A stretch of DNA of 64,000 nucleotides from NCBI GenBank assembly GCA_011321845.1, contig DROQ01000134.1:10891-74890 (forward strand), written 5' to 3'. Numbering within the stretch: position 1 is the first letter of the stretch; each line of letters begins with the position of its first letter. Position numbers and translations under genes: made by a program. This document shows, piece by piece, positions 6,390-53,705 of the stretch. Below the pieces are notes generated by a model. The model was not told the DNA's origin. It was given only the letters and a program-made list of their open reading frames with translations, and ran no database searches. The stretch comes from Planctomycetota bacterium (GTDB lineage: Bacteria; Planctomycetota; UBA1135; GCA-002748355).

Positions 6390-6449
6390 TCCTGTTCGGG
6401 ATCTCGAGAAGGGGGGGATCCCTCCTGGATTGAAGGGTATCCTTTGGGG

Positions 6450-8942: not shown

Positions 8943-8945
8943 GGC

Positions 8946-12619: not shown

Positions 12620-12720
12620 CCGCTCCCCGAGGGTGGGAGCGGCGAGGAGCTTCGGGGGCCTGGCCCGAGTTCGGCCCCGACCGAGGATCTGGGAACCGGA
12701 ACGCAATGGCTCCGATAGGC

Positions 12721-14139
12721 TCAGAACCATAGTGGCATGAGGATGGGAGAGGGCCGGATGTCTCCCTCCTGATCCCCGAGCCGGATCGGGTTTCCCTTGT
12801 CGTCCACCCAGACGCCCTTTTTGTTGGGGAAGCCCCGCCATGCCAGGTATTTTTGCTTTTGGGCTCCGGTCAAGGGCTTTCCGTTTCGGAGGATGCGCAC
12901 CCTGTCGTCCAGGATGGTGTTGGTTCCATCCCTGTTTTTCCCGTCCACGGGGACGATGAACTGGACGATCCCCATTCCACCCAGGCCGCCCAAGTTCCCG
13001 GCCATCGACCGGCTGGGAGGGAAGGCGTATTTTTTGGAAAAGGGCTCCGAAGAGGTTTTCCCCAAACCGGAGACCCCGCCATCCGCGCTCACCGAGAAGG
13101 AATTGTCCTTTTCACCATAGGTCCCGCCATGCACATGGAGGTCAATGCCCTTTCTCGAGGCGAGGATGACCATTCCCCCTGATCCTCCTCCTCCGGCGCC
13201 TCCCCATTGGCTGCTTCCCCCGGGTTCGCCCCCACCCCCGTCTCCACCGTTGGCGCTGATCTGCCCCTTGGGACCGACGATGATCTTGCCGAGGGCGTAG
13301 ACGAGGACTGCACCTCCTCCTCCGCCCCCTCCGGCGCCCTTTTCGTCGAGACGGAAGTTCGGGCGATAGTAGCGGTCGCCCCCGCCTCCTCCTCCGCTCC
13401 CTCCAAAGGGTCGGAGGATTTCCCCGTGGATGAGCCGCTTTTGATGGACATCCACCGCCCATCCCCAGAAATCGTTGTCCTTGCGACGATCGAAGAGGAG
13501 GAGAGAGCCGGGGGCTCCTCCCAAGACCTTGCTTCGGCCCTGGCCAAAACCCCCAAAGCCGATCTGTTGGACATTGCGGAGCGTTTTGGGATCAAAGCGG
13601 AGGGGGAAATAGGGGTCTCCCTTGGTGGAGAAGCTCCCACCACCCCCTCCCGCGCCGGAGATCCCGCCCGTGGTGTTGGCCAATCCTCCCACCCCGCCCA
13701 GTCCGAGGATCCCGAAGGGGCCGAAGCCCATTTCGCCTCCAGGGCTGTGTCCGGTGGAGTTGGGGGATCCCCGCCCTCCCGCGCCCCCGGCGGGTCCGGG
13801 CTTACCCCCGGGAGAGGGGAAGTTGGCGGAGTTCAAAGTGTCTACGTTGGGTGCGTTCTGTCCATCGCCATCCAGCCGCCCGTTTACGACCAGGTCACCG
13901 AGGGAGACCAGGATCAGGGGGTTGGGGCCTTCGGCGTGGACGCGGATTCCCTGGTCGATTTGGACTCTGTTGAAAACAAAGATCCCCCCTTTGAACACCT
14001 TGGATCCAATCTTTTGGCTGGCGGTGTTCAGCACCAGGCTTTTTTTGGGCTGGAAAACGGTCTGGGCTTGGAGCCCAGGGGCGCCGAGCAAAGCGAGCAG
14101 AAGGGACGAGGGAAGAAAGGGGAAGCGGGTGGATTCCAT
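12721..14139 (-). CDS. Secreted glycine-rich protein (predicted beta-solenoid)
   Basis: AGGAGG sits 6 nt before the ATG at 14139. Signal peptide MESTRFPFLPSSLLLALLGAPGLQAQ. Gly runs GGGGGGG alternate with short beta-like segments (AVLVYALGKIIVGPKGQISANGGDGGGG, GGMVILASRKGIDLHV). Confidence 0.8.
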   Translation of the reverse strand: MESTRFPFLPSSLLLALLGAPGLQAQTVFQPKKSLVLNTASQKIGSKVFKGGIFVFNRVQIDQGIRVHAEGPNPLILVSLGDLVVNGRLDGDGQNAPNVDTLNSANFPSPGGKPGPAGGAGGRGSPNSTGHSPGGEMGFGPFGILGLGGVGGLANTTGGISGAGGGGGSFSTKGDPYFPLRFDPKTLRNVQQIGFGGFGQGRSKVLGGAPGSLLLFDRRKDNDFWGWAVDVHQKRLIHGEILRPFGGSGGGGGGDRYYRPNFRLDEKGAGGGGGGGAVLVYALGKIIVGPKGQISANGGDGGGGEPGGSSQWGGAGGGGSGGMVILASRKGIDLHVHGGTYGEKDNSFSVSADGGVSGLGKTSSEPFSKKYAFPPSRSMAGNLGGLGGMGIVQFIVPVDGKNRDGTNTILDDRVRILRNGKPLTGAQKQKYLAWRGFPNKKGVWVDDKGNPIRLGDQEGDIRPSPILMPLWF

Positions 14140-14266: not shown

Positions 14267-14683
14267 CTAGGTCGCGCCCGGGGTCTGGTTGAGCGAGGTG
14301 AAGTGGGAGGTCACCACGCGCCAGTCTTTGCCGGGGAAGAGGACGAGGGCCATGCTGAGATGGCCGCCGGTCTCGACCTCGTGGCCAGTGGGATCCACCT
14401 GGAGCAGGTTCCACTCGAGGACGACCGAAGAGAAGCGATCCTCGAAGACCTGGATCCTGGGGTTCTTGAAGGAGAGCTTGACGTTGTCGAGGTAGCGGAA
14501 TTCCTGATCGAGGGCTTCCTCAAAGGCTCCCCATCCCTGGTCCAGGCGACCCGAGTGGTCGATGTGCAGGAATTTGGGGTTCGTCCAGAAGTACGACCGA
14601 AAGGTCTTGAGATCCTGGCTGTTAAAGGCTTGGCGGATCTCACGGAGTCGGTCTTCGATGGCTTTGATCGTTCCTGAGCTCAT
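14267..14683 (-). CDS. NTF2-fold protein (SnoaL/DUF4440-like)
   Basis: Its length and the pattern IKAIEDRLREIRQAFNSQDLKTFRSYF...VVLEWNLLQVDPTGHEVETGGHLSMALV..DWRVVTSHFT are typical of NTF2-like proteins. I preferred the ATG at 14683 to the GTG at 14692. Confidence 0.65.
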   Translation of the reverse strand: MSSGTIKAIEDRLREIRQAFNSQDLKTFRSYFWTNPKFLHIDHSGRLDQGWGAFEEALDQEFRYLDNVKLSFKNPRIQVFEDRFSSVVLEWNLLQVDPTGHEVETGGHLSMALVLFPGKDWRVVTSHFTSLNQTPGAT

Positions 14684-14828: not shown

Positions 14829-16160
14829 CTAGTGGTTTTTCAAACCTTTGTAGAAAGGCTCCTTTTCCTTTTCGTATCGAATCTTACCGAGGACGATGGC
14901 GGTCTCAACGAAGGATTTGTAAGAGAGAGGGTCCCCGTCCAGGATCAGGATGTCCGCGTCCTTGCCGACCTCCAGGGAGCCGATCCGGTCGTCCACTCCC
15001 AGGATCTTGGCGGCTTGGAGGGTGATGGTGGAGAGGGCCTTCTCATTGTCCATTCCGCCACGGACGGCGAAGCAGGCATCCATGAAGGGGGTGTTCAGAT
15101 CCCGGCCCAGGAGGCCCCCGAGGCCCATTCCGTTTCCGCCGAACCGCCCGGGGGGAGGAGTGACGGTCAAAGGAACCCCAGCCTTGGCCAGGATGTAGGG
15201 GCCTTGGATGTTGGAGCCGTTCTCTTCGATGCGAGTGGGGTCGGGCTCCACGTGGACTCGGGGCTGAAGAATACAGGAGGAGTGGGTGGCGGCGATTTCA
15301 TCGGGGATGATCCAGGCCTCGACGGGTCCATTGAGGACGATGCCTTTGCCAAGGAGTTTGGCGAGCCTCAAGGCTTCGCGGATCTGGGACACGGTCCGCG
15401 CTCCGGAAATGAGGAGTTTGGCCTTGCCTTCGAGGATGGGGAGGAGGGCGAGGCTGGCCTTGTCCGCCTTGGGGGCCTTGACCTTGGTGTCCCCGGCGAC
15501 TTTTTTCGCTTCATAGGCCGCTTTCTCCTTCTGGTACTTCCGGGTTTTTTCCAGGGCTTCTCTCAGCTTTTTCCAGGCGGAGGGGGAGGAGGGAACAGAC
15601 ATGGATTTCAATGTTCCCGCCTTGACGAGGATCTCGTCCAGCTCCCTGGGGATCAGCCTGAGGACTGCGGAATTGCCCGAAGGGAGGGTCCCCCCACGGG
15701 CGGGCATGTAGAGGTAACTGGTGATTCCGACCGCGATCGCCCTCCGGATCGTCTGGTCAAAGGGGTTGTAGTAGTCCTGAAAATCCTTGGACGGCCTGCC
15801 TCGCAGTCCCAAGGCAGGGGCCTGGACCATGATGAAGCCGGGGGAAATGTGCTTGTCCTTGGCGTCGAGGATCTTGCACCCCTTGGGGAGGTCCAGATGG
15901 AAACCGAAGGCTTTGATCTTGCCGTCCTCGACCAGAAGGGTGGCGTCCCGAACCACCTTGCCGTCTCCGATGTGGAAGGTTCCTCCCTGGATGGCCAGGG
16001 GCCGGGTTTTGGCCTTCTTGGCGGTTTTTTTCGCCGGAGCCTTGGGGGTGCTGGGTGGGGCGGCCTTTTTACTCCGCCGGCTCGAAGGACGAGTCTGGGA
16101 AGAAGCCCCGAGAGCGAGCATCCCAGTGGCGAGGGCGATCATTGCGTAGCTGCGTTTCAT
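14829..16160 (-). CDS. Secreted amidohydrolase-fold protein, module 9 (HxH motif absent)
   Basis: Signal peptide MKRSYAMIALATGMLALGASSQ from the ATG at 16160. N-terminal LLVEDGKIKAFG...ILDAKDKHISPGFIMVQAP, where HxH would be expected. C-terminal DDRIGSLEVGKDADILILDGDPLS. Confidence 0.75.
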   Translation of the reverse strand: MKRSYAMIALATGMLALGASSQTRPSSRRSKKAAPPSTPKAPAKKTAKKAKTRPLAIQGGTFHIGDGKVVRDATLLVEDGKIKAFGFHLDLPKGCKILDAKDKHISPGFIMVQAPALGLRGRPSKDFQDYYNPFDQTIRRAIAVGITSYLYMPARGGTLPSGNSAVLRLIPRELDEILVKAGTLKSMSVPSSPSAWKKLREALEKTRKYQKEKAAYEAKKVAGDTKVKAPKADKASLALLPILEGKAKLLISGARTVSQIREALRLAKLLGKGIVLNGPVEAWIIPDEIAATHSSCILQPRVHVEPDPTRIEENGSNIQGPYILAKAGVPLTVTPPPGRFGGNGMGLGGLLGRDLNTPFMDACFAVRGGMDNEKALSTITLQAAKILGVDDRIGSLEVGKDADILILDGDPLSYKSFVETAIVLGKIRYEKEKEPFYKGLKNH

Positions 16161-16209
16161 TTCAGTCTTGGTCCTGGTTTGTTCCTTCCATGTTTCGGGC
16201 TTGAAATGC

Positions 16210-17778
16210 CTAGTCCTGGTCTTGGTCCGAGGGGAGGGGGTGGACCCTGCGCCCTTCGAAGTAAATGGCCTCGAGTCTGGTCGCCGGGCCAAAGGGGGTC
16301 CCCACCAGGTGGATCAAGTTGGCGGCCCTGCCTTTTTGGATGAAACCCAACTCCTTGTCGACTCCCAGTGACTTGGCGACTTCACCGGTGCAGAGGGAGA
16401 CGAGCTTGGCCAAGGAGATGCCGGCCTGGCGGAAGCGACTCATCCGGAAGGAGAGGCTCGCCAGGGAAGCGGCGTTGTCTCCGGGAACCAGGGCGAGGGG
16501 GACGCCTGCGTCGAGGAGGCGCTTGGCCGGGCAGATGAACCATTGGGTGTCCTCGGCGAAGGCCAGCTGCACGGGGAGGACCACGCGAGCCTTGTACTTC
16601 TTGAGGAGGGGGATGACCTGGTCCAGGGTCTCCCGGGAGAGGCGCGAGTACTTTTGGACCACGGTCAAAGAGATTTTGTAGGTTTCCAGGTAGGAGGAGA
16701 GGGCTCTCAAGCCTTGGAGCAACTCTCCCAGGCCGCCGACCTGGAGGACGAGGGGACGTTTGCCCTCGAGGACTTCTGCGAGGACGACCAGCTTGGGGTC
16801 CTCCTTGGGGGCGGCCTTTTTCTTGGGGGCCGGTTTGGGGGCAGTCTTTTGGGCCGGCTTGGTCCTTGGCTTTTGGGGGGCGGGTTTCGGAGCCGGTTTC
16901 GGGCTTGGTTTGGGACTCGGCTTGGGGCTCGGCTTGGGGCTCGGCTTGGGAACAGGCTTTGGGGTCGGCTTGGGATGGGATCCCTTTCCCTTGCTCGGCG
17001 TCCCTTTGCTCGGGGAGGAAGCCTTGGAAGGGCCGGCTGTTTTGCCTTTTTTGGGGGCAGCCGCCTTCTTGCGGGCTTTGAGGAGTTGGACGGCTTTGTC
17101 GAAGTTCGTTTGGATCGCTTTTTGGGCATTGGAGCCGTAGCCCATGCGGAGCCAGAGGAAGAGCCCGTCTTTGAGCACCCATTTCTTGGGATCGCCGATC
17201 CCGATGCGCAGAACGGATTCTTGCCCAACGATTCCCGTGCGCGAGGGATGGACAGCCACGGTGGTGACGCCTCCCCGGAGGAGGTCTCTCCAGAGGGTGT
17301 TGTTGGGGTTCACCATGGAGCTGGCTTTGGCGGTGGGGTTGAAGGCAAAGCTCCCCGAACTACGGGCGGAGGGTTGGGGCATGCGCCGCCTGCGCCGCCT
17401 GTGGGGGTTGGGTCTGCCTGGCCGTTTCAGCTGGGGCGCCGTGGAGGCGGGGAGGGCAGCGTGGACGAGGCCGGGGATCAAGGCTCCACCTTCGACTCGT
17501 TTCATCGAGGGAGGGATGCGAAGTTTCGCGCCCATGTCCAGGATCTTGCCCTTGCGGACCAGGACCGTCTGGTTCCTGAGGACCTTGCCGCTTCCGTCAT
17601 AGACATCGACGTGGAGGAAGGCGATGTCCTCCGCCTTCTTGTCGAGGACCTTCTCGGCCGGGGTTCGTTTGTCCTTTTGGTCTTCGTCTGCGCGCGTTTT
17701 CGCTCCCAGCCTGGGAGCGAGACTCCCGAGGAGGAGGAGTCCCGTGAGGAGGGAGAGCGTTCGTTTCTTGGTCGACAT
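16210..17778 (-). CDS. Secreted amidohydrolase-fold protein, module 8 (HxH absent), with a long Lys/Pro linker
   Basis: Signal peptide MSTKKRTLSLLTGLLLLGSLA from the ATG at 17778. GALIPGLVHAALPAS in place of HxH. PKPTPKPVPKPSPKPSPKPSPKPSPKPAPKPAP linker. Degenerate C-terminal DKELGFIQKGRAANLIHLVG. Confidence 0.7.
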   Translation of the reverse strand: MSTKKRTLSLLTGLLLLGSLAPRLGAKTRADEDQKDKRTPAEKVLDKKAEDIAFLHVDVYDGSGKVLRNQTVLVRKGKILDMGAKLRIPPSMKRVEGGALIPGLVHAALPASTAPQLKRPGRPNPHRRRRRRMPQPSARSSGSFAFNPTAKASSMVNPNNTLWRDLLRGGVTTVAVHPSRTGIVGQESVLRIGIGDPKKWVLKDGLFLWLRMGYGSNAQKAIQTNFDKAVQLLKARKKAAAPKKGKTAGPSKASSPSKGTPSKGKGSHPKPTPKPVPKPSPKPSPKPSPKPSPKPAPKPAPQKPRTKPAQKTAPKPAPKKKAAPKEDPKLVVLAEVLEGKRPLVLQVGGLGELLQGLRALSSYLETYKISLTVVQKYSRLSRETLDQVIPLLKKYKARVVLPVQLAFAEDTQWFICPAKRLLDAGVPLALVPGDNAASLASLSFRMSRFRQAGISLAKLVSLCTGEVAKSLGVDKELGFIQKGRAANLIHLVGTPFGPATRLEAIYFEGRRVHPLPSDQDQD

Positions 17779-17834
17779 GATCTGTACGCCTTTACTTGCT
17801 TTTGGATCTCTTGCTTGCATCACCCGCATCCGGG

Positions 17835-19250
17835 TTAGAACTTGCGTCGCTTGTGGTTTTTTCCACCCGGGTCGCAGTTGTAGTAAAAGGTTCCGTTCAC
17901 CATGGCCCGGCGGACATAGTTGCGGGGGTCGAGGGGATCTCCAGTCCAGAGGACGAGGTCAGCGTCTTTGCCCACCTCGATGCTTCCGACCCGGTGGTCC
18001 GCGCCGATGAATCGGGCGGGGTTGATCGTGAGTCCCCGGATCGCGTAGGAGTCGGGCAGCCCGAGACGCACTGCCATGGCCGCTTGGACCGAGAGTTCCT
18101 CCTGGGGGACGACAGGGGCGTCCGTGTTGATCGCGATGCCATCCCGGCCGACCCCCGGGACTCCCTCGGGCCAGCCCAGCTTGCCTCCGAGAGCCCATCC
18201 CGCCGCAAGGCCGATGAACCGGCTGGTGTCACGATCGAACTGGTACTGCCGCGGCCCCAGGGCGATGGGGACTCCCCGCTTGAAGGCTTCTCCCGCCAGG
18301 CGGTAGGCGTCGAAGGTTCCGTGATCCACAAAGGTCCAGAGCCCGAACTCGTCGTGCAGCTCTCTCAGGGTTTCCAGGCAGACCTGGTAGGCCTGGGTGT
18401 GGACGCTGACGGGATACTCGTTGCGGAAGAGGCCGCGCAGGTATTCGAGGTCGGGTTGGAACTCGGGCTTTTCCTTGAGCTTGCCCGCGTCGTAGGCCTC
18501 CCATTTCTGGTAGTAGGCGCGCCCTCGCTCGAACATGGCCCGTAGGCCGAAATTCATGCCGATCCTCCCCGCGCCCATGTCCCCCGCGCGGCGCTCGGGG
18601 TTGCCCGCCTGGGCGACCTTGAGACTGCCCGGGAAGCGGATCAGGGCTTCGCTGGCGCTTCTGCCCGCAGTCTTGGTCAGAGTGCCGAAGCCTCCCGAGT
18701 TGGAACCCGAGCCGGGGATGTAGAGGACGGAGGTCACTCCACCGGCGAGGGCGCGCTTGATCTGTGGATGGTGGATGCCGACCAGGTCGAGGGTCCGAAA
18801 CTCGGGGTTGGTCGGATGGACGGTGTCGTTGAGGTCCCAGCCCGCCCCCGCGATGTGGCAGTGCAGGTCAACGAACCCTGGGAGCAGCCAGCCATCCCCC
18901 AGCTCGACTCTTTGGTAGCCTTGGGGGATCTTGATTTCCGAGGCTGGTCCCACGGCAAGGATCTTGCCCCGGTGGACCAGGACCACCCCGTCTTCGATGG
19001 GGGCTGAGGTCACAGGGAGGATGCGGCTCGCGAAAAGGGCGAGGTCCTTCGAATCGAAATCCTTGGGACCCCATTTGGCCACCTTGTAATCCTTTTCCTC
19101 CTTGGGCCGGTGCCCGAAGTCGATCTTGAAGGTCGCGGCCTGGGCCGGGCTCTTCCTGGGAGAAGTATCCTTCTCCTGCCCCAAGAGAGGAGAGAGGAGA
19201 AGGGTGGCGGTGAAAAAGACGGTGTAAGGGTTCTGGATCCGATGCATCAT
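17835..19250 (-). CDS. Secreted amidohydrolase, module 7. This is the only member with an intact HxH metal motif.
   Basis: LLPGFVDLHCHI (D-x-H-x-H). Later candidate ligands are VSVHTQ, FVDHGT and AINTDAP. C-terminal DHRVGSIEVGKDADLVLWTGDPLD. ATGA overlap with the upstream gene (ATG 19250, TGA 19249-19247). Confidence 0.85.
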   Translation of the reverse strand: MMHRIQNPYTVFFTATLLLSPLLGQEKDTSPRKSPAQAATFKIDFGHRPKEEKDYKVAKWGPKDFDSKDLALFASRILPVTSAPIEDGVVLVHRGKILAVGPASEIKIPQGYQRVELGDGWLLPGFVDLHCHIAGAGWDLNDTVHPTNPEFRTLDLVGIHHPQIKRALAGGVTSVLYIPGSGSNSGGFGTLTKTAGRSASEALIRFPGSLKVAQAGNPERRAGDMGAGRIGMNFGLRAMFERGRAYYQKWEAYDAGKLKEKPEFQPDLEYLRGLFRNEYPVSVHTQAYQVCLETLRELHDEFGLWTFVDHGTFDAYRLAGEAFKRGVPIALGPRQYQFDRDTSRFIGLAAGWALGGKLGWPEGVPGVGRDGIAINTDAPVVPQEELSVQAAMAVRLGLPDSYAIRGLTINPARFIGADHRVGSIEVGKDADLVLWTGDPLDPRNYVRRAMVNGTFYYNCDPGGKNHKRRKF

Positions 19251-22069
19251 TTGTTCTCCCCTGCGTTTTCCTGGAGGCCGTTCGCGGTCTTGGCGCTGTT
19301 GTCCACGGCCAGCTTTCCATGCACCCATACTTTGAGAATCCGGCTGCGAAGATCGAAGGGGTCCCCACTCAGGAGGACGAGGTCAGCGTCGCAACCTCGG
19401 TCGATCCTGCCGATCCTTTTGTCCAAGCCGTAACCCGCCGCGGGTGCACCGGTAATGGCCTTGCGCGCCTGCTTGGGGCTCATGCCCTGAGAAACCGCCC
19501 AGGCAGCGTGGACGGGAAGGAACTTGGTTCCTGCCTGCGCCCTTGTAATCAGGGCGATGTCCAGTCCCTGGCGATCCAGAGCGTCCGCGAGGGAGTGGTA
19601 GACCCCCTTCTCCATGTAGCCCAGTTCCTCGGGGCGGAGAAGAATCGTCAGCCGCGTTCCCTTGGGGAGCTTGAGGGGGTGTTCGGCGATTTCACGAGCG
19701 GATCCCTGGAGGACGAGCTGGAGTTTGGATTGGACCAGGACGCTGTCCACGGCGGCCTGGGCCGCGTCCCGGTTGGCGCAGCTGACGACCAGAGCGGCCC
19801 CGTCCTCGAAGACCGCCCGGAAAGGTTCCAGGCTCTTGTTGGTCTTGTCCTTGGTTTCCTCCTCCGGTTCGCTTTCGGCTTTGCTTGGGCTCCCTCCTCC
19901 TTCGGTCCTGTCCAACTCAAAGGTGATGGGGATGGGGACGGGAGCGTTCTTGACACTTCCTTCCATGTGATCCCCCGAAACCTCCGCTTCGATGTTCACA
20001 GAAGCGCCTTGAATTTTGGCCTTGAAGGTCAGGCGGGGAGGGTTCCAGTCCCCGGTGAGTTGGATCTTGCGAGGCCCGGTCATTTTGGCCTGAAGGGTCG
20101 CTTGCACCTTGGAACCGTTCAGACTCATGATCACCTTGAGTTCCGAACGCATGCTTCCTGCTTTGACCGTTCCCTTCCAGGTCCCGCTGATGGGATCCTT
20201 CTTCTGCTTCTTGGGTTTGGGGCTCGGGGCGGGCTTGGCCTTTGCGACCTTTTTTGGGTAGAGGTAGTCCTTGGCTTTTTTGAGGATGCCCTGGATCTGC
20301 GCCACCCCGCTCTTGCCTCCCCGGGAGAGGAGCAAGCGGATGCCCGCAATCTCCTTGAGCACAAAATCCTCCCGGTCCCCCTTGGGGTCCAGGTAGGTTT
20401 TGACTGCAGGAACGCGGGAACTGACCGGACCCGAATCGTCCGGGCTTACGAAAAGGGTGGTGATCCCCGCCTCGAGGGCGTCTCGAAAGGCGGGATCCCT
20501 CGGATCCAGGGCCGCGGCCACGTCGACACTGGTCGAGGCGGTGATCCTGGTCCCGGAACTCTGGTGGAGGCCAAGCTTGGAGGCGGCCGCGATCATGCCG
20601 GGCATGAGGACGGCGCTGGGAAACTCGAGGATCTTGGCGCCGGGTGGGATCAGGGCTTCGGGACCGAAGTCGAGGATCTTGCCGTCCTGGACGACGACGA
20701 GGGAATTGTGTTGTTCGGTTCCATTTCCCAAGAGGATGCGCCCGCAGCGGAGGGCGAAGGTCTCCCGCACCCTCTTTTTCGCATAGGCGTTCTTGCCGTC
20801 CACCCAGACTTCGAGGATGCGGGTGCGGGCGTCGAAGGGGTCCCCGGTGAGAATGATGAAGTCGGCGTCCTTGCCTTCTTCGAGAGAACCGATCCGGTCG
20901 GCGACGCCGCTGGCTCTCGCGGCTTCGAGGGTGATGGCCTTGATGGCTTCGTGTTCCGGGAGGCCGTAGCGGCAGGCCAGGCCCGCGAGCATGAGGAGTT
21001 TGTCCAGGTCGCGGTCCGTGCCGGGGACGAGGGCGATCGGCACACCGGCCTTGGAGAGGATGCCGGCTGTAGCCGGTGCGTTGAAGGGCTTGCCTCCCGG
21101 GATCCGGTAATCCCCCTGGAGCGGGTGGGCGGGATCCAGGGGGAGGCTCAAGATGGTGGTGACGGCTTGCTTCCCCAGCTCCGCCTTGAGCGCGGCGGCT
21201 TCGAGAGGACGATCCAGCACGATCGAGGCTCCAAGGCGCCTGGCGAGGTCGAGACCCTGCAGGATCTCCCCCGTGGTCTCCGCGTGGAGGTGGATGGGGA
21301 GCTTGCCCTGGGTGACCGCCCGGAGCGGACCGAGGTCGGTCCTCTTGCCGAACTCCGGGGTGGTCCGGAGCTTGGGATCCTTGGCGAGGTCGAAGGCTTT
21401 TTCCAGGATCTCGATCTGACTGGAAAGGCTGGTACCCCACTGCTTGCGGGCAGGGCGGAGGGGATTGTCCGCGGTGGGGGCCGCAACGGGCTCGAACACG
21501 GGAGGGGGGACCCTCGAGTTCCGGGTCAAGTTGATATCGAGGCCGGCGGCGTTGGAAAGGCTGCGGGCGGCCTCCCCGGGACCCGCGAGCTTGACGACGG
21601 AGCCCAGGCCGGGGACGAGCCGGCTTTTTCCGGGAGAAAGGTACATCGAGGTGATGCCCCCGGCGAGGAGCCTGCTGTGATCCGCGAAGGAGTCGAAGTT
21701 GTCCTCGGCCACGAGGTCGGGCCGGATGTTGTCCTCCACGTCCCGGGCGGCCAGGCCTGTGTAGGCAGCGACGATGCCCGGCATGAGGGTGTTCCGGGAG
21801 GCGTCGATCACCTTGGTCCCCTTGGGGATGGGGCCCTTGTCCTTTTGGATCTTGAGGATCTTGCCATCCTGGAGGTAGATGCGAACTCCCTCGAGGACAC
21901 GACCGTCGCCCACGTAGACCCGGCCCGCGCGGATGCAGGTGCTCGGAACCTGGGCGCTGGAGGTTTTGGCCTCCGGAGCCTTGGGGGTCGTGGATTGTGC
22001 GGGGACCGCCAGGGAGAAGGCCCCGAGGCAGAGGCCTCCCAAGCTGGATTTCAAGAGTCTTCCCCTCAT
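19247..22069 (-). CDS. Secreted fusion of two amidohydrolase-fold modules (modules 5 and 6, both lacking HxH), with an embedded small beta-sandwich-like insert
   Basis: Signal peptide MRGRLLKSSLGGLCLGAFSLAVPAQS. Two lead-ins (MPGIVAAYTGL and MPGMIAAASKL). Two C-terminal signatures (ADRIGSLEEGKDADFIILTGDPFD and DKRIGRIDRGCDADLVLLSGDPFD). Insert ISGTWKGTVKAG...VSGDHMEGSVKN. Confidence 0.75.
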   Translation of the reverse strand: MRGRLLKSSLGGLCLGAFSLAVPAQSTTPKAPEAKTSSAQVPSTCIRAGRVYVGDGRVLEGVRIYLQDGKILKIQKDKGPIPKGTKVIDASRNTLMPGIVAAYTGLAARDVEDNIRPDLVAEDNFDSFADHSRLLAGGITSMYLSPGKSRLVPGLGSVVKLAGPGEAARSLSNAAGLDINLTRNSRVPPPVFEPVAAPTADNPLRPARKQWGTSLSSQIEILEKAFDLAKDPKLRTTPEFGKRTDLGPLRAVTQGKLPIHLHAETTGEILQGLDLARRLGASIVLDRPLEAAALKAELGKQAVTTILSLPLDPAHPLQGDYRIPGGKPFNAPATAGILSKAGVPIALVPGTDRDLDKLLMLAGLACRYGLPEHEAIKAITLEAARASGVADRIGSLEEGKDADFIILTGDPFDARTRILEVWVDGKNAYAKKRVRETFALRCGRILLGNGTEQHNSLVVVQDGKILDFGPEALIPPGAKILEFPSAVLMPGMIAAASKLGLHQSSGTRITASTSVDVAAALDPRDPAFRDALEAGITTLFVSPDDSGPVSSRVPAVKTYLDPKGDREDFVLKEIAGIRLLLSRGGKSGVAQIQGILKKAKDYLYPKKVAKAKPAPSPKPKKQKKDPISGTWKGTVKAGSMRSELKVIMSLNGSKVQATLQAKMTGPRKIQLTGDWNPPRLTFKAKIQGASVNIEAEVSGDHMEGSVKNAPVPIPITFELDRTEGGGSPSKAESEPEEETKDKTNKSLEPFRAVFEDGAALVVSCANRDAAQAAVDSVLVQSKLQLVLQGSAREIAEHPLKLPKGTRLTILLRPEELGYMEKGVYHSLADALDRQGLDIALITRAQAGTKFLPVHAAWAVSQGMSPKQARKAITGAPAAGYGLDKRIGRIDRGCDADLVLLSGDPFDLRSRILKVWVHGKLAVDNSAKTANGLQENAGENK

Positions 22070-23388
22070 TTGCCTCGACCTCCTCCGGCCGAGGTCCGGC
22101 TGCCCTTGACTCCGGTCAGCGCCTTGACACGGGGGTCCTTGCTCCGTTGGTAGATCAGCTTGCCTCCGGCCAGCAGGTGGGTTACCACGCTCTCAGGTTC
22201 GAAGGGGGGCGCGGAGCGAACCTGGATAAAGGCTTCCATTCCCTTTTGGATCTTCCCCACCCGCCTGGAGAGCCCGAGAACGGCGGCGGCCTCAGTGGTG
22301 AATCCTTCGAGAGCTTTTTCGGGACTCAGGCCGTAGCGGATGGCGGTTCCGCATTGCCAGGTGGGGTAGTTCAGGGTTGGGCTCGAGCTGCGTCCCCAAC
22401 GCCCGGAGGTCGCGGGGGTGGTCAGGGCGAAACGAAGACCCGCGTCGGCGAAGACCCGGGCCGGGCTGACCCGTTTCTGGTCCTTGGTGATGGGGTCGGT
22501 TTCGATGATCTCCAGATTGGGATCCAGGACCAGGGGAATCCCCCGCAGCTTGACAAAGGGCTGGAGGAGCTTGACCGCCTTGTAGCAGTCTCCCCCCAGA
22601 ACAAAGGTCACGGGGAAACGGAAGCGCTGGCAGAGCCGGATGGCCGCGGGCACATCCGTCGCTCCGGGGATGTAGAGCATGGCGCGGATCTTCCCCTCGA
22701 GGAGGTCGACCAGGGGTTTCTTGAGGGGATCGAGAACCTCTTCGAATTCCTTCTTGGTGGTGGCTCCGTTGGCCTTGTCCTCCTCGAACTCTTTCTTTCT
22801 CCGTTCGAAGTCGCTCTTGGCGTTCTTGGCATCCTCCAAGGCGGTCAAGATGGTTCGGTAGTGATCCGCCCTGCTTCCCCGTGTCGGTTTGAGAGAGATC
22901 TTCAGGACCGAGGGCTCGAGGATCTGCATTTCCTCCGGGGTTTTTCCCCAGGGTTGGAAGACTCCGCCTGTTCCCCCGATGGCGCAGGCGTTTCCGGGGA
23001 CGACATGGATCACGCCGTACCCCGCGCGCCGGCAGTTCTCGAAGAAGGTGTCGACGGGGTTGATGGAGTCCATCACGCTGAGGAAGGGGGTCACAGGCAT
23101 GGACTCATTTTCCCTGTCCATTCCTCCCGAGCCGTGGGCCAGCACGAAGGCGGGCATCACGTATCCCTTGCGGGCGTCGATGACGCGGGCGTTCCAGGGG
23201 ACTTGGATGTCCTTGCCGATCTCCCGGATCTTGCCGTCCTTGATCAGGATGGTCACGTTCTCGAGAGTGCTCCCCGGCTCGAGCATGACCTTGCCCGCCC
23301 GGATGGCGAGCTGGTCCTGGGCCTTGGAGGCCGGGCCGAGGAGGAAGGGGGTGAGGGAAAGGAGCGAAACTGCGAGGAGCTTGTTCAT
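22066..23388 (-). CDS. Secreted amidohydrolase-fold protein, module 4 (HxH absent)
   Basis: The ATG at 23388 opens signal peptide MNKLLAVSLLSLTPFLLGPASKAQ. An alternative TGATG-coupled start at 23463 would add 25 non-signal residues. YVMPAFVLAHGSG in place of HxH. Degenerate C-terminal SRRVGKIQKGMEAF. Confidence 0.7.
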   Translation of the reverse strand: MNKLLAVSLLSLTPFLLGPASKAQDQLAIRAGKVMLEPGSTLENVTILIKDGKIREIGKDIQVPWNARVIDARKGYVMPAFVLAHGSGGMDRENESMPVTPFLSVMDSINPVDTFFENCRRAGYGVIHVVPGNACAIGGTGGVFQPWGKTPEEMQILEPSVLKISLKPTRGSRADHYRTILTALEDAKNAKSDFERRKKEFEEDKANGATTKKEFEEVLDPLKKPLVDLLEGKIRAMLYIPGATDVPAAIRLCQRFRFPVTFVLGGDCYKAVKLLQPFVKLRGIPLVLDPNLEIIETDPITKDQKRVSPARVFADAGLRFALTTPATSGRWGRSSSPTLNYPTWQCGTAIRYGLSPEKALEGFTTEAAAVLGLSRRVGKIQKGMEAFIQVRSAPPFEPESVVTHLLAGGKLIYQRSKDPRVKALTGVKGSRTSAGGGRGK

Positions 23389-23462
23389 CGGTACCAAAAG
23401 GTTGAAGGAACGAAAGATACGGTGCTGGTTCTTGGAGGAAGGACCTTGGATCGGGAGGTTCA

Positions 23463-24680
23463 TCAGCGCTTGGCCTCCCCTTGGACGGTTCTCCCTGAAA
23501 TCAGGACCCTCACGGGGTGGCTGCCCAGGGAGAGAGGATGTCCCGACCAGAGAACGAGGTCGGCGTCGAGACCCTTTTTGATGCTGCCTACGCGATCGGC
23601 GATCCCCAGGATGTCCGCGGGGACGGAGGTGACCGCCGCGAGGGCCTGCTCTCGGCTGAGGCCGCCACGCACGGTGAAGGCCGCCTCCTGGATCAGTGGG
23701 AGCCTGGTGATTCCGCGCCCCGTCTGGATCGCGAAACGGATCCCTTTTTTGGCGAGAAGGGTTGCGGTGTCCAAGTGGGGGGTGGCCCCGTCGGGGACCA
23801 GGCTCGCCGAGGGGGCGGTGAGGAGGACGGGGAAACCTGCCTTCTCGAGCTGGTCCAGTGCGAAGTAGGCCTCGGAGGCCCCGTCGATGACGATTTTGAG
23901 CCCGAACTCCCTGGCCAGCCGGAGAGCGGTCCGGATGTCCTGATCGGCCCGGGCCGTCATGCGGCAGCGGATCTTGCCTTGGAGGGTGCCCAGGAGGACC
24001 TTGGTTCCCCGGTCGGGTTCGCGGCGGACCTTGGTGTCCCGATATTTCATGGCTTTGTAAAAGGCTCGGCGGATCTCCCAGATGGTTCCCATGCGGGTCG
24101 TAGGCCTGCGGTTGTAGAGGGAAGTGGGCTTGCCCCAGCGGGGGGGGCGGTTGCCGTATCCCGGCAGGGTGCCGAGAGTGACGCGGAGTCCGCTCCCTGA
24201 TTTCAGGAGGCGCTCCTGGAGGGGTCCCCCGGTCTTGAGGATGGCGTCGAGGCCTCCGATGACGTTGTAGCCACCCGGACTGACGCAGGCCGTGGTCACC
24301 CCGTTCTCGAGGGCGAAGCGGAAGGCGGGGCTCTTCAGGTCGATCGCGTCCTTGACCTGGATGGCCGGGGTGACTTCTTCGGACTGTTCGTTTTCCTGGT
24401 CGCTCGGGAGGCCGAGGGCGGTGTTGGCGTCAACGAGGCCGGGGGTGAGGAAGAGCCCGCTCGCGTCGATGACCTGGTCACTGGGCAGTGGTTCGACCTT
24501 GCCGACGGCCTGGATCTTGCCGTCCACGATGCGAACCGAGATCCCCTTGGTGAACCCTCCCTCACCCGTGAAGACCTGGGCTCCCTGGATGACGATCGGT
24601 TTCTCCTGGGCTCCGCCCGAGGCACAGAGGAGGGTAGCGAAAAGGCCGGACAACAGCCATTGCTGCGCTTGTGTGTTCAT
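23463..24680 (-). CDS. Secreted amidohydrolase-fold protein, module 3 (HxH absent)
   Basis: The ATG at 24680 gives MNTQAQQWLLSGLFATLLCASGGAQ. LTPGLVDANTALGL in place of HxH. C-terminal ADRVGSIKKGLDADLVLWSGHPLS. Confidence 0.75.
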   Translation of the reverse strand: MNTQAQQWLLSGLFATLLCASGGAQEKPIVIQGAQVFTGEGGFTKGISVRIVDGKIQAVGKVEPLPSDQVIDASGLFLTPGLVDANTALGLPSDQENEQSEEVTPAIQVKDAIDLKSPAFRFALENGVTTACVSPGGYNVIGGLDAILKTGGPLQERLLKSGSGLRVTLGTLPGYGNRPPRWGKPTSLYNRRPTTRMGTIWEIRRAFYKAMKYRDTKVRREPDRGTKVLLGTLQGKIRCRMTARADQDIRTALRLAREFGLKIVIDGASEAYFALDQLEKAGFPVLLTAPSASLVPDGATPHLDTATLLAKKGIRFAIQTGRGITRLPLIQEAAFTVRGGLSREQALAAVTSVPADILGIADRVGSIKKGLDADLVLWSGHPLSLGSHPVRVLISGRTVQGEAKR

Positions 24681-24685
24681 TGGAT

Positions 24686-25894
24686 CTACTTTTCTCCCTG
24701 ATTGGAGTTTTTCTTGGGCTGGGTCCTGGTCTTCCAGACCACCTTGCCGGAGCGGACCACGCAGAGGAGTTTGCTGCGCAGGTCCCAGGGGTCTCCGCTC
24801 CAGATGCAGAGGTCGGCGCGGCGGCCCTTGAGGAGGCTGCCCACCTGATCCTGGATTTTGAGCAGGGAGGCGGGGACCGAGGTCAAGGAGGCGAGGGCGA
24901 GCTTGGGGTCCAATCCCTGCCGGACGGCGGTCCATAGGGTGAAGCCGAAGCGCGGCAGGCCGGCCTTGTCGAAGCCTTCGCCGCTGAAGGCGAAGGGGAT
25001 CTTGGCTTTGGCGAGCTTGAGGGGGAGGCGGAGGGCTTTTTTGGAGCTGTTGGGGCTGAGGGGGTCGAGGACGACTCCGATCTCCAGCTCCTTGATGCGG
25101 GGGAGGCTGAGGGCGGCCTCGTTGGCGTGAATGAGGAATCCCTCGAGCTTGTCCTCCTCGAAGAGGTCCAGCGCGGCTTGGATCTGGGGGAGGGTCCGGC
25201 AGGCGATGCCCACCACCCGGCCTCCTCCCAGCGCGGAAGCGAAGACGGAGAGCACCGGGTCGTTTCCCTTCTCAAGAGGGTTTCTGGCGTCCTCAAAGCT
25301 GTTGCGCAGGATGTCGACCGCTCCCAGGAGACTGGTGGGGGGGCGCCCCCGGTTGAGCACCGCGTTGGTGAGGGAGAGCTTGAGATAGGCTTCTCCCTGG
25401 GCTGTGAGGGAGGAGGGCCCTGGCTGGATCCAGGCTGCGCTGCCCCCGGCCAGGTTCCCGTCGTCGGGGGCCAGGGCGATGGTCGTGACGCCGCGGCGCA
25501 GGAGGGCTTTCCAGCGAGGGGCGAAGGGGTCGTAGGCGCTTTTTGCGTTCCATTTTGGAGCCATCGCGAAATTCCGCTCCCGCAGCTCCCCCGCTCGGGC
25601 GAGATCGGGGGGGAGGCAGTGGATGTCGATGAAGGCTGGTGTCACGACCGCTCCCTCGTAGACCAGTTTGTTCGGGGTCAGGGAGTCGAAGGGGAGGTCT
25701 CCCGGCTTTCCGCTCCGTTCCGCAACATCCTGGATGCGCCCCTTCTCGATCAGCAGGCTGCCTCTGGCCAGGACCTGTTGACCGGAGAGATGGATCCTTC
25801 CCGCGCGGACGACGAGCCGTTCTTGGGCGTGGGTCCTGGAGAGGAAGAGGGAGAGAGCGAGGAGGGGGAGGAACCCCCGCAGCTGAACCTTCAT
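24686..25894 (-). CDS. Secreted amidohydrolase-fold protein, module 2 (only the first His retained: IDIHCL)
   Basis: Signal peptide MKVQLRGFLPLLALSLFLSRTHAQ. VVTPAFIDIHCLPP. C-terminal QDQVGSLLKGRRADLCIWSGDPWD. ATGA overlap with the upstream gene (25894/25891). Confidence 0.75.
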   Translation of the reverse strand: MKVQLRGFLPLLALSLFLSRTHAQERLVVRAGRIHLSGQQVLARGSLLIEKGRIQDVAERSGKPGDLPFDSLTPNKLVYEGAVVTPAFIDIHCLPPDLARAGELRERNFAMAPKWNAKSAYDPFAPRWKALLRRGVTTIALAPDDGNLAGGSAAWIQPGPSSLTAQGEAYLKLSLTNAVLNRGRPPTSLLGAVDILRNSFEDARNPLEKGNDPVLSVFASALGGGRVVGIACRTLPQIQAALDLFEEDKLEGFLIHANEAALSLPRIKELEIGVVLDPLSPNSSKKALRLPLKLAKAKIPFAFSGEGFDKAGLPRFGFTLWTAVRQGLDPKLALASLTSVPASLLKIQDQVGSLLKGRRADLCIWSGDPWDLRSKLLCVVRSGKVVWKTRTQPKKNSNQGEK

Positions 25895-27540
25895 TGTTGT
25901 TCCTCAATCTTTTGCAGCTTGCTGCGTCTGAGAAGATAGATGGGGCGTGATCCGGGGGAGAGGGGGGCTCCCTTCCAGACGATCCAGGGGATGGTGGCCC
26001 GCTTGGAGAGCACTCCGCAAACCTTGAAGGCCGATGGCCCCAACATCGCGATGGCGTCCCTTTCGCTCGCCCCAAAGGTTGTTGCCCGCGCCGCCACCGC
26101 GGGTAGCAGCCTGGCATGGAGTTTCCCTCCCGAGCCCAAGGCTACGGGGATCCCTTCCTTGGCCAGGGTGGCCGCCGAATAGGCCCAATGCTGCTCCCGG
26201 AGGGCGAGGCGCCTGGCCGGGACCGAACTCTCTTCGGGGAGGGCCTGGGGGATGAGGAGGACATTGGCTTCTTCCCCCCGAATCTCCGCGGCGACCTTCC
26301 AGGCCTCGGTCCCCCCGGCGATCGTGAGATGCTTGAGGGAGTGGCGATGGGCGAGGTCGAGCAGAGCGAGGATCTCCTTGGCCCGGTGGATTTCGACGAT
26401 GAGGGCCAGTTTCCCGTCCAGGATCTTGCGGAAAGCTTCGAGCTGGGGGTCTCGTTTGGGCCTTTTGGGATAGGCCGGACGTTTGGGGGCCTTGCCGGTC
26501 TTGGCTCCCTGGGTGGATGGGGCTTTCGGTTTTTTGGCGACGGATTTGGCCTTGGCCTTTTTGAGCGCTTCTTGCTGGAGTCGCATCTGCTTCTCGAGCT
26601 GCTTGCGAACCCGGTCCCGGATCTGTGGGGGATAGCGCTTCAGGATCTTATTGATGAGTTCGGGAGTGAGGAGGGGCATCTTTCGCCGGCGTCCCCTTCG
26701 TTTCGTCGGTTTCGGGGCGGCAGAGACCACCTTCTCCCCCGGTTTCAGGGGGTGCTTCTTGTAGTAAGAAAGGAATTCCTTGCGCTTTTTCTGGTATTCC
26801 TGCAACTCCTTCTCGAACTTCTTCCAGGCCTTTGCATAGGCCTTGGCCTTTTTGAAAAGGTTCTCCAGGGGCTGGACCACCTTGTCGTAGGAAAGATTGT
26901 TCACCGGGCTTGTGGGAGAGGAGAGTTTCATCCAGACCGCCCCGGGGAGGGAGCCGAGGAAACCCTTCTTCATGTCCACCAGGACGAGGGCGCCCGGCCC
27001 CGTTGTGGAAGGCCTGGGGGAACCTGGAACGTAGAACCCCCCATAGCCTTCCTGGCTCAGGAGGGGGCGATACCCGGTCTGCCAGGGTTCCAGGGAGGAG
27101 CGGAGAGGCATCCCCGCGAGGAGCTTGCTGTCCCCCAGGGCCGCCTTGGAGAGGAATTGGGTGGAGCAGGCATCGATGAAAGCGGGAGAGAGGGTGGATC
27201 TAGGGACCGCACTCAGGTCTATGACCTTGGCCTTGATCTTGTCCTTGGCAAGGGGCAGCTCCTTCTCCTGGCGTGGGAGGAGATCGATCAGGCGGCCCCG
27301 CCGAAAAACGGCCCAAAACCCCTGTTTTCCGGGTTTGCGATCCGCCAAGGGGCCTTCGGGGGTCCAGGAGACCCGGGCCAGGCCCAGGACCAGGACCCTC
27401 CTCTGGCCGAGCCAGCGCTCCAGGGGGCCGACCGGCTTTTGGGCTGGGACCTTCCTTGGGCTCGGTTGTTGCCCTTGCGTTGGTTTGGATGTCTGGGCAG
27501 GGAAGAGGCTTAGGCCAACGAGGAGGGAGGTCCAGATCAT
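25891..27540 (-). CDS. Secreted amidohydrolase-related protein, module 1 (most degenerate), with a ~140-aa highly basic insert
   Basis: N-terminal hydrophobic leader MIWTSLLVGLSLFPAQ. KVIDLSAVPRSTLSPAFIDACSTQ aligns to the PGFIDxHxH region of its paralogs. GIPVALGSGG is like the GVPIALVPG of the paralogs. Lys/Arg-rich insert KKAKAYAKAWKKFEKELQEYQKKRKE...KRPKRD. Confidence 0.6.
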   Translation of the reverse strand: MIWTSLLVGLSLFPAQTSKPTQGQQPSPRKVPAQKPVGPLERWLGQRRVLVLGLARVSWTPEGPLADRKPGKQGFWAVFRRGRLIDLLPRQEKELPLAKDKIKAKVIDLSAVPRSTLSPAFIDACSTQFLSKAALGDSKLLAGMPLRSSLEPWQTGYRPLLSQEGYGGFYVPGSPRPSTTGPGALVLVDMKKGFLGSLPGAVWMKLSSPTSPVNNLSYDKVVQPLENLFKKAKAYAKAWKKFEKELQEYQKKRKEFLSYYKKHPLKPGEKVVSAAPKPTKRRGRRRKMPLLTPELINKILKRYPPQIRDRVRKQLEKQMRLQQEALKKAKAKSVAKKPKAPSTQGAKTGKAPKRPAYPKRPKRDPQLEAFRKILDGKLALIVEIHRAKEILALLDLAHRHSLKHLTIAGGTEAWKVAAEIRGEEANVLLIPQALPEESSVPARRLALREQHWAYSAATLAKEGIPVALGSGGKLHARLLPAVAARATTFGASERDAIAMLGPSAFKVCGVLSKRATIPWIVWKGAPLSPGSRPIYLLRRSKLQKIEEQQ

Positions 27541-27665
27541 ATTCCGTCTGCGGTCGTTAAGGAAAAGGATGTCGGGGAAGGAGGGCAGCTGCCGTCATAC
27601 GAAAAGAGGGGCAATCCTGCCAGCGGCATTCTGAAATTCGAGCCGTTCATGTTACCCTTCTCCCG

Positions 27666-28259
27666 ATGCGTAGCCCGACGGTTTATTGTGGTCCGATGTG
27701 GGGGGGGAAGACCGAGGCCCTGATCTCCCGCCTTGTCCGTGCCCGGATCCAGGAGATCCCTGTTCTCGCGTTCAATCCGCACTTGAACGACCGCTATGGG
27801 ACGCGGGACATCCGCGCGCACTCGGGGGCGAGCTTTCCCGCGACTCCGGTGCATTCCGGGGAAGAAATCCTCGAGGTGGTCCGCCGGGAGCAGCCACAGG
27901 TTGTGGGGATCGACGAGTTTTTCATGATCCCTTCTGCCCTGGCGGCGGTCGAGTACATGGTCCACCGGAGGATCAAGGTCGTGGTCTCCACTCTGGACCT
28001 GGATTCCGAGGGCGTCATTTGGGAGGGACTGGGGCAACTGCTCGCCATGGCTGAGGAAGTCGTCAAATGCCCTGCCGTATGCGCGGTCTGCAAAGCCGAC
28101 GCGTATTTCACCTTCCGCAAGGGCTACGCTCCCTCCGAGCGGGTTCTGGTGGGGGCGGATGAGTTTTACGAGCCCCGCTGCCGCCGTTGCTTCGACCAGG
28201 GGCAGGAGGCCAAGCGAGCGGCTACGGGGGAGGGCTCCCTTTTTGACGGGGGGTCTTGA
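27666..28259 (+). CDS. tdk: Thymidine kinase
   Basis: P-loop GPMWGGKTEALI, DEFFM (Walker B-like), and the C-terminal Cys cluster CPAVCAVC...PRCRRC typical of type II thymidine kinases. Confidence 0.9.
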   Translation: MRSPTVYCGPMWGGKTEALISRLVRARIQEIPVLAFNPHLNDRYGTRDIRAHSGASFPATPVHSGEEILEVVRREQPQVVGIDEFFMIPSALAAVEYMVHRRIKVVVSTLDLDSEGVIWEGLGQLLAMAEEVVKCPAVCAVCKADAYFTFRKGYAPSERVLVGADEFYEPRCRRCFDQGQEAKRAATGEGSLFDGGS

Positions 28260-53600: not shown

Positions 53601-53705
53601 GACCAGGGTGGGTGCTTGGGAGAAGGACGGACTAGCCAGTGTGAGGGAGACCATGAGGGGCATACCGAGCTTTGAGATCGCTCTTGCTAGATGGGTTGTT
53701 GTCAT
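50610..53705 (-). CDS. Secreted ELWxxDGT repeat protein, paralog 1 (~17 repeats of ~48 aa plus the C-terminal Cys-pair module)
   Basis: GGAG sits 7 nt before the ATG at 53705 (the track start at 53717 is a TTG). Signal peptide ...MPLMVSLTLASPSFSQA. Repeats G.ELW(V/I)SDGT.AGT.(L/M)VKDI.PG...S.P..L...G.K..F.A.D. This is the ELWxxDGT repeat family of NCBIfam/TIGRFAMs. Confidence 0.9.
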   Translation of the reverse strand: MTTTHLARAISKLGMPLMVSLTLASPSFSQAPTLVKDINTQAINNPSSYPSGWTRVGPVVYFQASTPSTGTELFKTVGSSRSTVLVKDIQKGGMGSSPLYLTRLGSKILFSASEKTHGRELWISDGTSAGTKLMKDIWPGSKNSNPDILTSAGNKVFFVADDQISGRELWVSDGTRAGTRRVKDIFPGSHPSYPGDFTALGNKIIFRADDGIHGFELWVSDGTAKGTYMIKNIDGGAGSSHPIHLTRMGSKVYFAATDGVRGFELWVSDGTAAGTTLVKDIRPGPLYSAPRFLTTVGNKLYFQANDGVHGLELWVTDGTSAGTKMVKDIRSGLLGSLPHKLAAFGSKLLFRAFHPNSGRELWISDGTAAGTTLVKDIRTGKAGSNPDWITAFAPGKALFTANDGTNGTELWITDGTSAGTSLLKNIRPGSTGSLAFELFTSFGRVYLRANDGTHGLEPWVSNGTTVGTTLLKDLATNGNRSSHPSFLTDKFNQTIFVANDEIKGDELWTSNGTSAGTFLLKDIRPGFFGSKIGNLTQAGNRVFFRANDGLNGTELWATNGSRAGTAMVKDIRSGSLGSFPDELTAFGSWLLFKASDGTNGLEPWISDGTSAGTRMLKDIRSGANPSDPAGFYFWKGKIYFRANDGSNGSELWATDGTASGTRMVADINPGASSSSPGPFAAMGGKLYFRAYKSGLGSELWVTDGTSSGTALVKDLRPGSRGSDPLQLTAVGNKLFFTADGGTYGKELWVSNGKAAGTRMVKDIRPGFFTSAPTNLIALNGKLLFRAYDGINGHEIWVSDGTSGGTHLLKDISKGKESTYSYRYTRLGSRYVYFLAFNLASGSELWRTDGTSAGTVLVPEVRPGKASSAPDYMTLSRGQILMRATHPTKGAELFKYFPGANSKPVGHPCSTSATRFPTLAGTDPILGGTMNLRGAGAKPRAIGIQLQGVQVDPNAIPLPTLGASCMSYINLLSFWMPLSTFPVPASGTWTQNYPVPNTPTLKGVRIAYQTWYLILPALQWEMSNGVFSAFGN

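Follow-up and report, generated by a model that had tools for sequence, protein, structure and literature searches.

A conserved Planctomycetota array of diverged amidohydrolase modules, one of nine with a complete metal site

We analysed a 64,000-nt stretch of DNA from a Planctomycetota bacterium (assembly GCA_011321845.1, contig DROQ01000134.1, positions 10,891 to 74,890), which is referred to below as the window and whose base composition is about 62% G+C. In this window, eight co-directional, mostly overlapping minus-strand genes (27540-14829), here called g8 to g1 in the direction of reading, encode nine diverged modules of the amidohydrolase fold, and just one of the nine, that of g3, carries a complete set of metal-binding residues. 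The array is kept in the same order and orientation in related genomes. The reading that we favour, and to which we give somewhat better than an even chance, is that the genes encode a periplasmic hetero-oligomeric hydrolase, in which g3 would be the single catalytic subunit and the other eight modules would act as scaffold or binding subunits. We found no description of such an array in the literature, in line with the claim of an earlier reading of this DNA made from the letters alone (hereafter the sequence-only reading) that no system of this kind had been described.

Nine homologous modules and a single metal site

The sequence-only reading had assigned a shared amidohydrolase layout to all products, and a domain scan agreed for most of them. 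The Pfam families Amidohydro_1/3 match seven of the eight proteins, five of them at the cut-off and g2 and g5 just below it, with two sets of matches in g4; g8, however, has no match, and all matches are confined to the C-terminal 40-90 residues. NCBIfam adds short N-terminal matches, again with none in g8, and no curated NCBIfam model reaches its cut-off in any of the eight proteins. An ortholog alignment was built for each module from related loci, and the resulting profiles were compared with hhalign. Every one of the nine modules, including g8, proved homologous to g3 over its full length (probability 100%, E about 1e-42 to 1e-73), with E-values to g3 of 9e-42 for g8, 7e-50 for g2, 4e-51 for g7, 1e-54 for g1, 2e-59 for g5 and 2e-73 for g6. 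Where window paralogs can be aligned over most of their length, they are just 22-31% identical, which indicates that the duplications are old. The shared layout, the count of nine modules with two of them in one gene, and the absence of a recent duplication were all borne out in this way.

AlphaFold2 (AF2) models agree with the profile comparison. The model of g4, built on a 53-sequence alignment (mean predicted local distance difference test, pLDDT, 85.4; predicted template modelling score, pTM, 0.65), has 3OOQ as its best match in the Protein Data Bank (PDB), with a template modelling score (TM) of 0.82 and E 1e-26, all other structures reaching TM 0.61 or less. The model of g8, built on eight sequences (pLDDT 72.7), also matches 3OOQ best (TM 0.67, E 3e-15; next match 2e-7), so that the fold assignment holds even for the most divergent member of the array. 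Both models match amidohydrolases over whole modules. As modelled, the modules fold as amidohydrolase barrels with a composite beta-sandwich domain to which the N- and C-termini both contribute; the absence of such barrels was one of the outcomes that the sequence-only reading had named as refuting it.

The ligand pattern of binuclear-metal amidohydrolases consists of an HxH motif in beta-1, a Lys or Glu in beta-4, a His in beta-5, a His in beta-6 and an Asp in beta-8. The g3 protein (17835-19250, minus strand as for all array genes; 471 aa), which is the presumed catalytic subunit, has this set as H130 and H132 (HxH), K193, H284, H310 and D377. Across its 75 orthologs the four His never vary, K193 is found in 74 and D377 in 73. 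When the g3 ligand columns were mapped onto the other modules through the profile alignments, no further complete set was found in the window, nor was one found in the ortholog groups of the other eight modules. A paralog present in other genomes, g3b, keeps all metal ligands, and beyond g3 and g3b no module has more than two of the six. The prediction of the sequence-only reading that the modules are mostly inactive was thus correct and can be sharpened to exactly one module out of nine with the metal ligand set.

The dead modules have lost their sites to different degrees. The metal ligands are absent from g8 (25891-27540, 549 aa), the first gene of the array, and from g1 (14829-16160, 443 aa), the last one. 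In g7 (24686-25894, 402 aa) one His of the set is left, at a position that varies among 59 orthologs, and in g6 (23463-24680, 405 aa) the six positions hold N, A, K, T, G and G. The ligands of g5 (22066-23388, 440 aa) are lost save one conserved His, and g2 (16210-17778, 522 aa) has kept the Asp position and lost the others. The long g4 protein (19247-22069, 940 aa) consists of two fused dead modules, g4N (20768-22069) and g4C (19247-20767), and the ligands are absent from both halves. The residues at the former ligand columns of the dead modules differ between orthologs. Since the ligand set is incomplete in all eight, these modules are members of the superfamily by their predicted fold and pseudoenzymes by their active sites.

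Relatives of the g3 protein number in the thousands, and the best 120 of them are 56-84% identical to it. In a scan with one genome per species of the GTDB, a g3 relative turned up in 226 genomes, the best 80 of which are all metagenome-assembled genomes (MAGs), nearly all labelled Planctomycetota. Around three g3 relatives, all eight genes recur in the order seen in the window, and a gene for an NTF2-like protein comes after them. For the whole-array counts, the open reading frames (ORFs) of related loci were labelled with module-specific hidden Markov models, and 41 loci with enough flanking sequence, all from species-level Planctomycetota MAGs, were considered. In all 41, the order g8-g7-g6-g5-g4N-g4C-g3-[g3b]-g2-g1 on one strand is identical and no core gene is missing. 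The array is thus neither scattered nor an artefact of one lineage, two outcomes that the sequence-only reading had named as fatal to its proposal. Record labels describe the hosts as uncultured Planctomycetota of aquatic and engineered systems.

The number of modules is nine in 15 of these arrays, ten in 25 and eleven in one. The tenth module is g3b, a live paralog about 45% identical to g3 that lies between g3 and g2; it is carried, for instance, by the loci L018, L020, L021 and L024-L026 (about 10001-13000 in each) and is found neither in the window nor in its nearest relatives. The eleventh is a third g3-like gene in L046. In a neighbour-joining tree, g3 and g3b split near the base of the clade, on very short branches.

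The fixed order extends across lineages whose g3 proteins are just 45-60% identical. The median identity of orthologs to the window proteins is 60% for g3, 45% for g6 and g1, 39% for g5, 37% for g4N, 35% for g7, 31% for g4C, 29% for g2 and 27% for g8. In comparison with the nearest relative, L005, the ratio of non-synonymous to synonymous substitutions (dN/dS) is 0.03-0.15 for g1-g6 (0.076 for g6, 0.048 for g5 and 0.029 for g3), these values being rough because dS is saturated (about 1.8). By both measures, g3 is the most conserved gene of the array. The data indicate that the dead modules are maintained under purifying selection, as far as the six testable genes (g1-g6) go. A second dN/dS comparison, with L002, was discarded, as the sequences were too diverged.

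Third-position G+C content (GC3) was used to tell real genes from the many spurious overlapping ORFs, and starts were placed at plausible start codons. GC3 is 0.77-0.85 in the eight array ORFs versus 0.58-0.65 in the overlapping plus-strand or antisense ORFs. Together with the ORF tables, this supports the eight consecutive genes and the junctions described in the sequence-only reading: ATGA overlaps at g8/g7, g5/g4 and g4/g3, a 5-nt gap at g7/g6, and longer gaps of 74 nt (g6/g5), 56 nt (g3/g2) and 49 nt (g2/g1). In three other genomes with independent gene calls, the junctions are mostly overlaps of 4 or 1 nt, the remaining genes lying 2-17 nt apart. Judged from junctions and gene order, the array is probably a conserved, translationally coupled Planctomycetota operon.

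At the N-terminus of all eight array proteins, a short polar stretch leads into a hydrophobic core, which usually ends in AQ or GQ and is followed by an acidic or polar residue. These N-termini were recognised by a hydropathy scan and inspection by eye, not by SignalP, both in the window and in the same three genomes, and they agree with the signal peptide that had been proposed for every product. The array proteins, among them the dead modules g8, g7, g6, g5, g2 and g1, are thus predicted to be exported to the periplasm.

The 3OOQ branch, module fusions and inserts

In PDB searches with the g3 profile, the closest match was 3OOQ from Thermotoga maritima (E 6e-64, about 390 aligned residues), with the ligand motifs in register. 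The next one, the Lys/Arg carboxypeptidase Cc2672 (3MTW), came at 7e-16, followed by a putative prolidase, deaminases and imidazolonepropionase. The sequence-only reading had pointed to Xaa-Arg/Lys dipeptidases or imidazolonepropionases as the closest types; this did not hold, as the uncharacterised 3OOQ subfamily is closer. Nor do the corresponding curated models reach their cut-offs: for NF051886 (XaaProDiPepCaul, 500 bits) g4 scores 95, g3 71 and the other matching proteins 25-43 bits, and for HutI TIGR01224 (298 bits) the scores are 27-50 bits, from terminal segments only. Peptidases of the COG1228 type (3MTW Cc2672; the Sgx9260/eah89906 prolidases 3MKV, 3FEQ and 3N2C) belong to the same superfamily, share the composite beta-sandwich and the C-terminal GS.e.GK.ADL motif, and are the next-best matches after 3OOQ in both sequence and structure. 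They are, however, far more distant than 3OOQ (E 7e-16 versus 6e-64, TM about 0.55 versus 0.82), and they form homo-oligomers whose subunits are all active. By profile and model, g3, g4 and g8 belong to a 3OOQ-like subfamily, for which no curated family name was found.

The entry 3OOQ comes from structural genomics; its ten chains share one sequence, and a literature search yielded no publication on what it does. In a 2026 preprint (10.64898/2026.08.06.736029) it is counted among the dihedral homomers of a benchmark limited to assemblies of 10-30 chains, which together with the ten chains implies, second-hand, a D5 decamer. Like the array modules, 3OOQ has a helical-hairpin insert between the barrel halves, and it is the closest match both of the live g3 and of the dead g4 and g8. 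It differs from the array in being a homomer with all aligned ligand motifs, whereas the array comprises 9-10 distinct paralogs predicted to be exported, with one or two live modules. In the printed alignment 3OOQ begins at residue 7, so that a signal peptide would not fit ahead of it.

Fusions between modules have occurred repeatedly. All 75 loci that span g4N and g4C encode the two as one polypeptide. In L090 (2416-6510 of that locus), one protein of 1364 aa corresponds to g8, g7 and g6 together and is followed by g5, g4, g3, g2 and g1; acidic linkers join its modules and it has no internal signal peptides, so that the fusion is genuine and not an assembly error. The g7-like part of this protein has an HxH-type pattern at residue 596 and may retain part of the active site. 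Another candidate, an 869-aa g3b-g2 "fusion" in L001 (11434-14043), was rejected as the probable product of a long-read frameshift, the C-terminal part of g3b lying in another frame (12194-12628).

In distant relatives (Gemmataceae, a candidate Aminicenantes MAG and other MAGs), proteins of two modules pair a live half with a dead one, and in some cases a gene for a further dead single module comes next. A profile search, run exhaustively over 1.84 billion representative proteins, gave 1,176 matches at E ≤ 1e-30. Among the 132 best family representatives with a length of 380 aa or more, 52 comprise two modules and 49 comprise three, and exactly one HxH motif is present in 86 of these 101 multi-module proteins. 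The pairing of a live module with dead paralogs is thus the rule in this branch, and the window array is the most elaborate, unfused form of this pairing. The fusions lend indirect support to a physical association of the modules.

The modules differ most visibly in one loop between the barrel halves, which is 34-58 aa long in modules other than g8, g2 and g4C. In g8 the insert comprises 157 aa with 50 Lys and Arg (residues 221-377; window 26410-26880) and is predicted to form two long helices, that is, a hairpin. In g2 it comprises 129 aa (residues 212-340; 16759-17145) of low complexity, of the (P-K-P-S/A)n type, with 32 Lys and Arg and 28 Pro. Both basic inserts may bind anionic partners. 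In g4C, the place taken in other modules by a helical hairpin is occupied by an all-beta domain of about 95 aa (residues 629-723; 19901-20185), which is conserved among g4 orthologs and gave no significant match in Pfam. Elaborations of this kind, as they appear in the models, are what position-specific roles would look like.

Amidohydrolase folds that have lost their metal ligands are not without precedent. The fungal CAD dihydroorotase-like domain (5NNL) and CRMP/DPYSL (2GSE), which appeared as weak matches in the PDB searches, show that such folds can serve as structural or binding partners. They are, however, cytoplasmic, belong to other branches of the superfamily and have one dead copy per system, and neither of them is an array of eight dead paralogs around a live one. 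A literature search found no description of an architecture with one live module and dead paralogs in the 3OOQ branch. The fold, the superfamily and, in principle, pseudoenzyme subunits are known, and the array and its live-plus-dead architecture appear to be new.

A putative hetero-oligomer and the alternatives

Under the reading of a periplasmic hetero-oligomeric hydrolase, the nine modules (ten in most relatives) would be exported to the periplasm, where g3, with its site of the binuclear-metal type, would hydrolyse an amide-like bond of an extracytoplasmic small molecule or peptide. The family resemblance suggests hydrolysis of an amide-like bond and no more specific chemistry. All modules would assemble into one large, pseudo-symmetric hetero-oligomer descended from a homo-oligomeric ancestor, with each paralog at a dedicated position as a scaffold, gate or substrate-binding subunit for g3. 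The loop elaborations (the basic helical hairpin of g8, the Pro/Lys-rich tail of g2 and the beta domain of g4C) would then confer position-specific functions. Indirect support for a hetero-oligomer comes from the natural fusions and, by analogy, from the homomeric ten-chain 3OOQ. The sequence-only reading had named such an assembly, or else a battery of binding modules around one enzyme, and its interpretation is supported to the extent that sequence analysis allows.

Transitions of this type are well established elsewhere. In the beta ring of the eukaryotic 20S proteasome and in CCT/TRiC, a homo-oligomeric ancestor has been replaced by diverged paralogs in fixed positions, one per position, and in the proteasome a minority of the subunits is catalytic. 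These assemblies have been demonstrated experimentally and have folds and chemistry unrelated to those of the array, whose own assembly is a matter of inference; the likeness is therefore a functional analogy only. The ten chains of 3OOQ, set beside the ten modules of 25 of the 41 arrays, are suggestive. A bolder version of the hetero-oligomer, which we put forward tentatively and would not expect to hold as readily as the general reading, is that every position of a 3OOQ-like decameric ring is filled by a dedicated paralog, one or two of them catalytic. The array would then be an extracytoplasmic counterpart of the differentiation seen in the proteasome and CCT, and the two- and three-module fusions would represent intermediate stages.

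Several points weigh against the hetero-oligomer and its decameric version. The pTM of 0.65 for the g4 model means moderate global confidence. The decamer of 3OOQ derives from a crystal and is known second-hand, and we know of no member of the 3OOQ branch with a known substrate. The window has nine modules, as do the most divergent arrays, L081, L088 and L090, which misfits a decamer with one paralog per position, and the relatives with two or three modules do not all fit it either. With nine modules in these arrays, and with three-module chains, which do not add up to ten, the decamer is just a candidate geometry. Finally, the signal peptides were judged by hydropathy and eye, and the saturated dS makes the evidence from dN/dS rough.

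Alternatively, the dead modules could be independent soluble periplasmic binders, converted from enzymes, each of which would capture its own substrate or variant and hand it to g3 or to transporters, and which would form no stable complex. Each array protein does have a predicted signal peptide of its own, the inserts are module-specific, and some dead modules have partly conserved residues of their own at former ligand positions (a Lys at the beta-4 position of g6, g4N, g4C and g1, and the His of g5). However, binders of this kind should come and go and change places between lineages, whereas the set and its order are fixed in all complete loci, and the modules have repeatedly been fused to each other and to live modules. 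Moreover, no transporter genes are conserved beside the array in the neighbourhoods of three other genomes, and the closest solved homolog is a large homo-oligomer. We regard independent binders as rather unlikely, with a chance that still deserves attention.

The basic inserts of g8 and g2 raise another alternative, namely that the array proteins form a structural lattice or anchor in the periplasm or envelope, with these inserts bound to anionic polymers and with g3 catalysis secondary, for example in remodelling the polymer. The predicted export of all proteins and the loss of catalytic residues in eight of the nine modules are consistent with such a role. On the other hand, searches with Pfam and NCBIfam revealed neither a lipoprotein box nor a membrane anchor nor a known cell-wall-binding domain, and the strongest conservation is that of g3, which argues for catalysis as the core function. 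This alternative, which has a small probability in our estimate, overlaps with the hetero-oligomeric hydrolase rather than opposing it.

It is also conceivable that the "dead" modules are enzymes of a non-canonical kind and that the operon encodes an extracytoplasmic pathway of nine different hydrolases. Acidic residues do stand at the HxH positions in some ortholog sets, the two positions of g4N being D in 58 and 56 of 70 sequences, and such sets keep the beta-4 Lys. Yet g4N of the window has Y and G at these positions, and no module other than g3 and g3b approaches a full ligand set. The variation of the former ligand positions among orthologs, as opposed to their near-invariance in g3 and g3b, makes non-canonical catalysis very improbable. 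Simple decay of g3 duplicates without a function of their own would likewise lead to lost catalytic residues. The conservation data effectively refute it: the frames are intact, the order is fixed at 45-60% g3 identity and dN/dS is well below 1 in six genes. The AF2 models, moreover, are confident and well folded.

If the modules do assemble as the hetero-oligomeric hydrolase requires, the array would illustrate with unusual clarity how a homo-oligomeric enzyme can evolve into an obligate hetero-oligomer, here one that has 9-10 differentiated paralogs and a single active site, in a bacterial and extracytoplasmic setting. The graded simpler relatives, with one live and one or two dead modules per chain, would make the evolutionary path testable. 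The 3OOQ branch, with about 1,200 representative clusters at E ≤ 1e-30 and mostly multi-module proteins among its closest members, would gain a functional context. A conserved exported system of 12.7 kb likely matters for the processing of external substrates in the host Planctomycetota; a practical limit is the lack of any known cultured host or substrate of the array.

Flanking genes and other features of the window

The sequence-only reading had described a unit of eight genes. All eight were confirmed, but a ninth co-directional gene is conserved with them. This gene (sno, 14267-14683, minus) starts 145 nt after g1 and encodes a 138-aa NTF2-like protein (SnoaL_3/DUF4440) that has no hydrophobic N-terminus or signal peptide and is thus not predicted to be exported. 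The NTF2-like gene comes after g1 in 61 of the 63 loci that reach far enough, and is missing from L081 and L084, the two most divergent of those 63 arrays. The Pfam match to SnoaL_3 (E 3e-4, 21.4 bits) is slightly below the cut-off of 22, and one ortholog is AtzH-like. A PDB sequence search with the protein gave a weak match to an uncharacterised protein and nothing else.

On the upstream side, a thymidine kinase gene (27666-28259, plus) is divergent from the array, and the 125 nt between it and g8 (27541-27665) are the presumed promoter region of the array. No Rfam family or riboswitch and no consensus sigma-70 match was found in these 125 nt, and a tRNA was the sole Rfam match in the whole window. 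A promoter and terminator scan gave counts no higher than in shuffled sequence (28 terminator-like sites versus 23 ± 5), and none of the minus-strand sites within the array is strong.

Downstream of sno lies a gene for a secreted protein of 472 aa (12721-14139, minus), which is unrelated to the array, has no significant Pfam match and is not conserved beside the array elsewhere. The strongest terminator-like hairpin of the region (12619-12643, minus; nine pairs, eight of them G-C, with a T-rich tail) is located just after this gene. Next to the array are also three large plus-strand genes (6444-12619). The first of their products has 832 aa and a planctomycete-type PSCyt1 cytochrome domain, the second has 626 aa, and the third has 598 aa and an Ig-like domain. 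In the relative L002 (14973-21320), and not in L001 or L003, this place is taken by genes that resemble the three in size and domain content.

A second paralog array is situated at 50610-63877 on the minus strand. It consists of at least four consecutive genes for proteins of about 1035 aa, the last of which is cut by the end of the window. In Pfam these proteins have weak PQQ_2 and DUF5980 matches alone. They are built of ELW.TDGT..GT..VKDI repeats, and two of them are 62% identical over 1004 residues without a gap.

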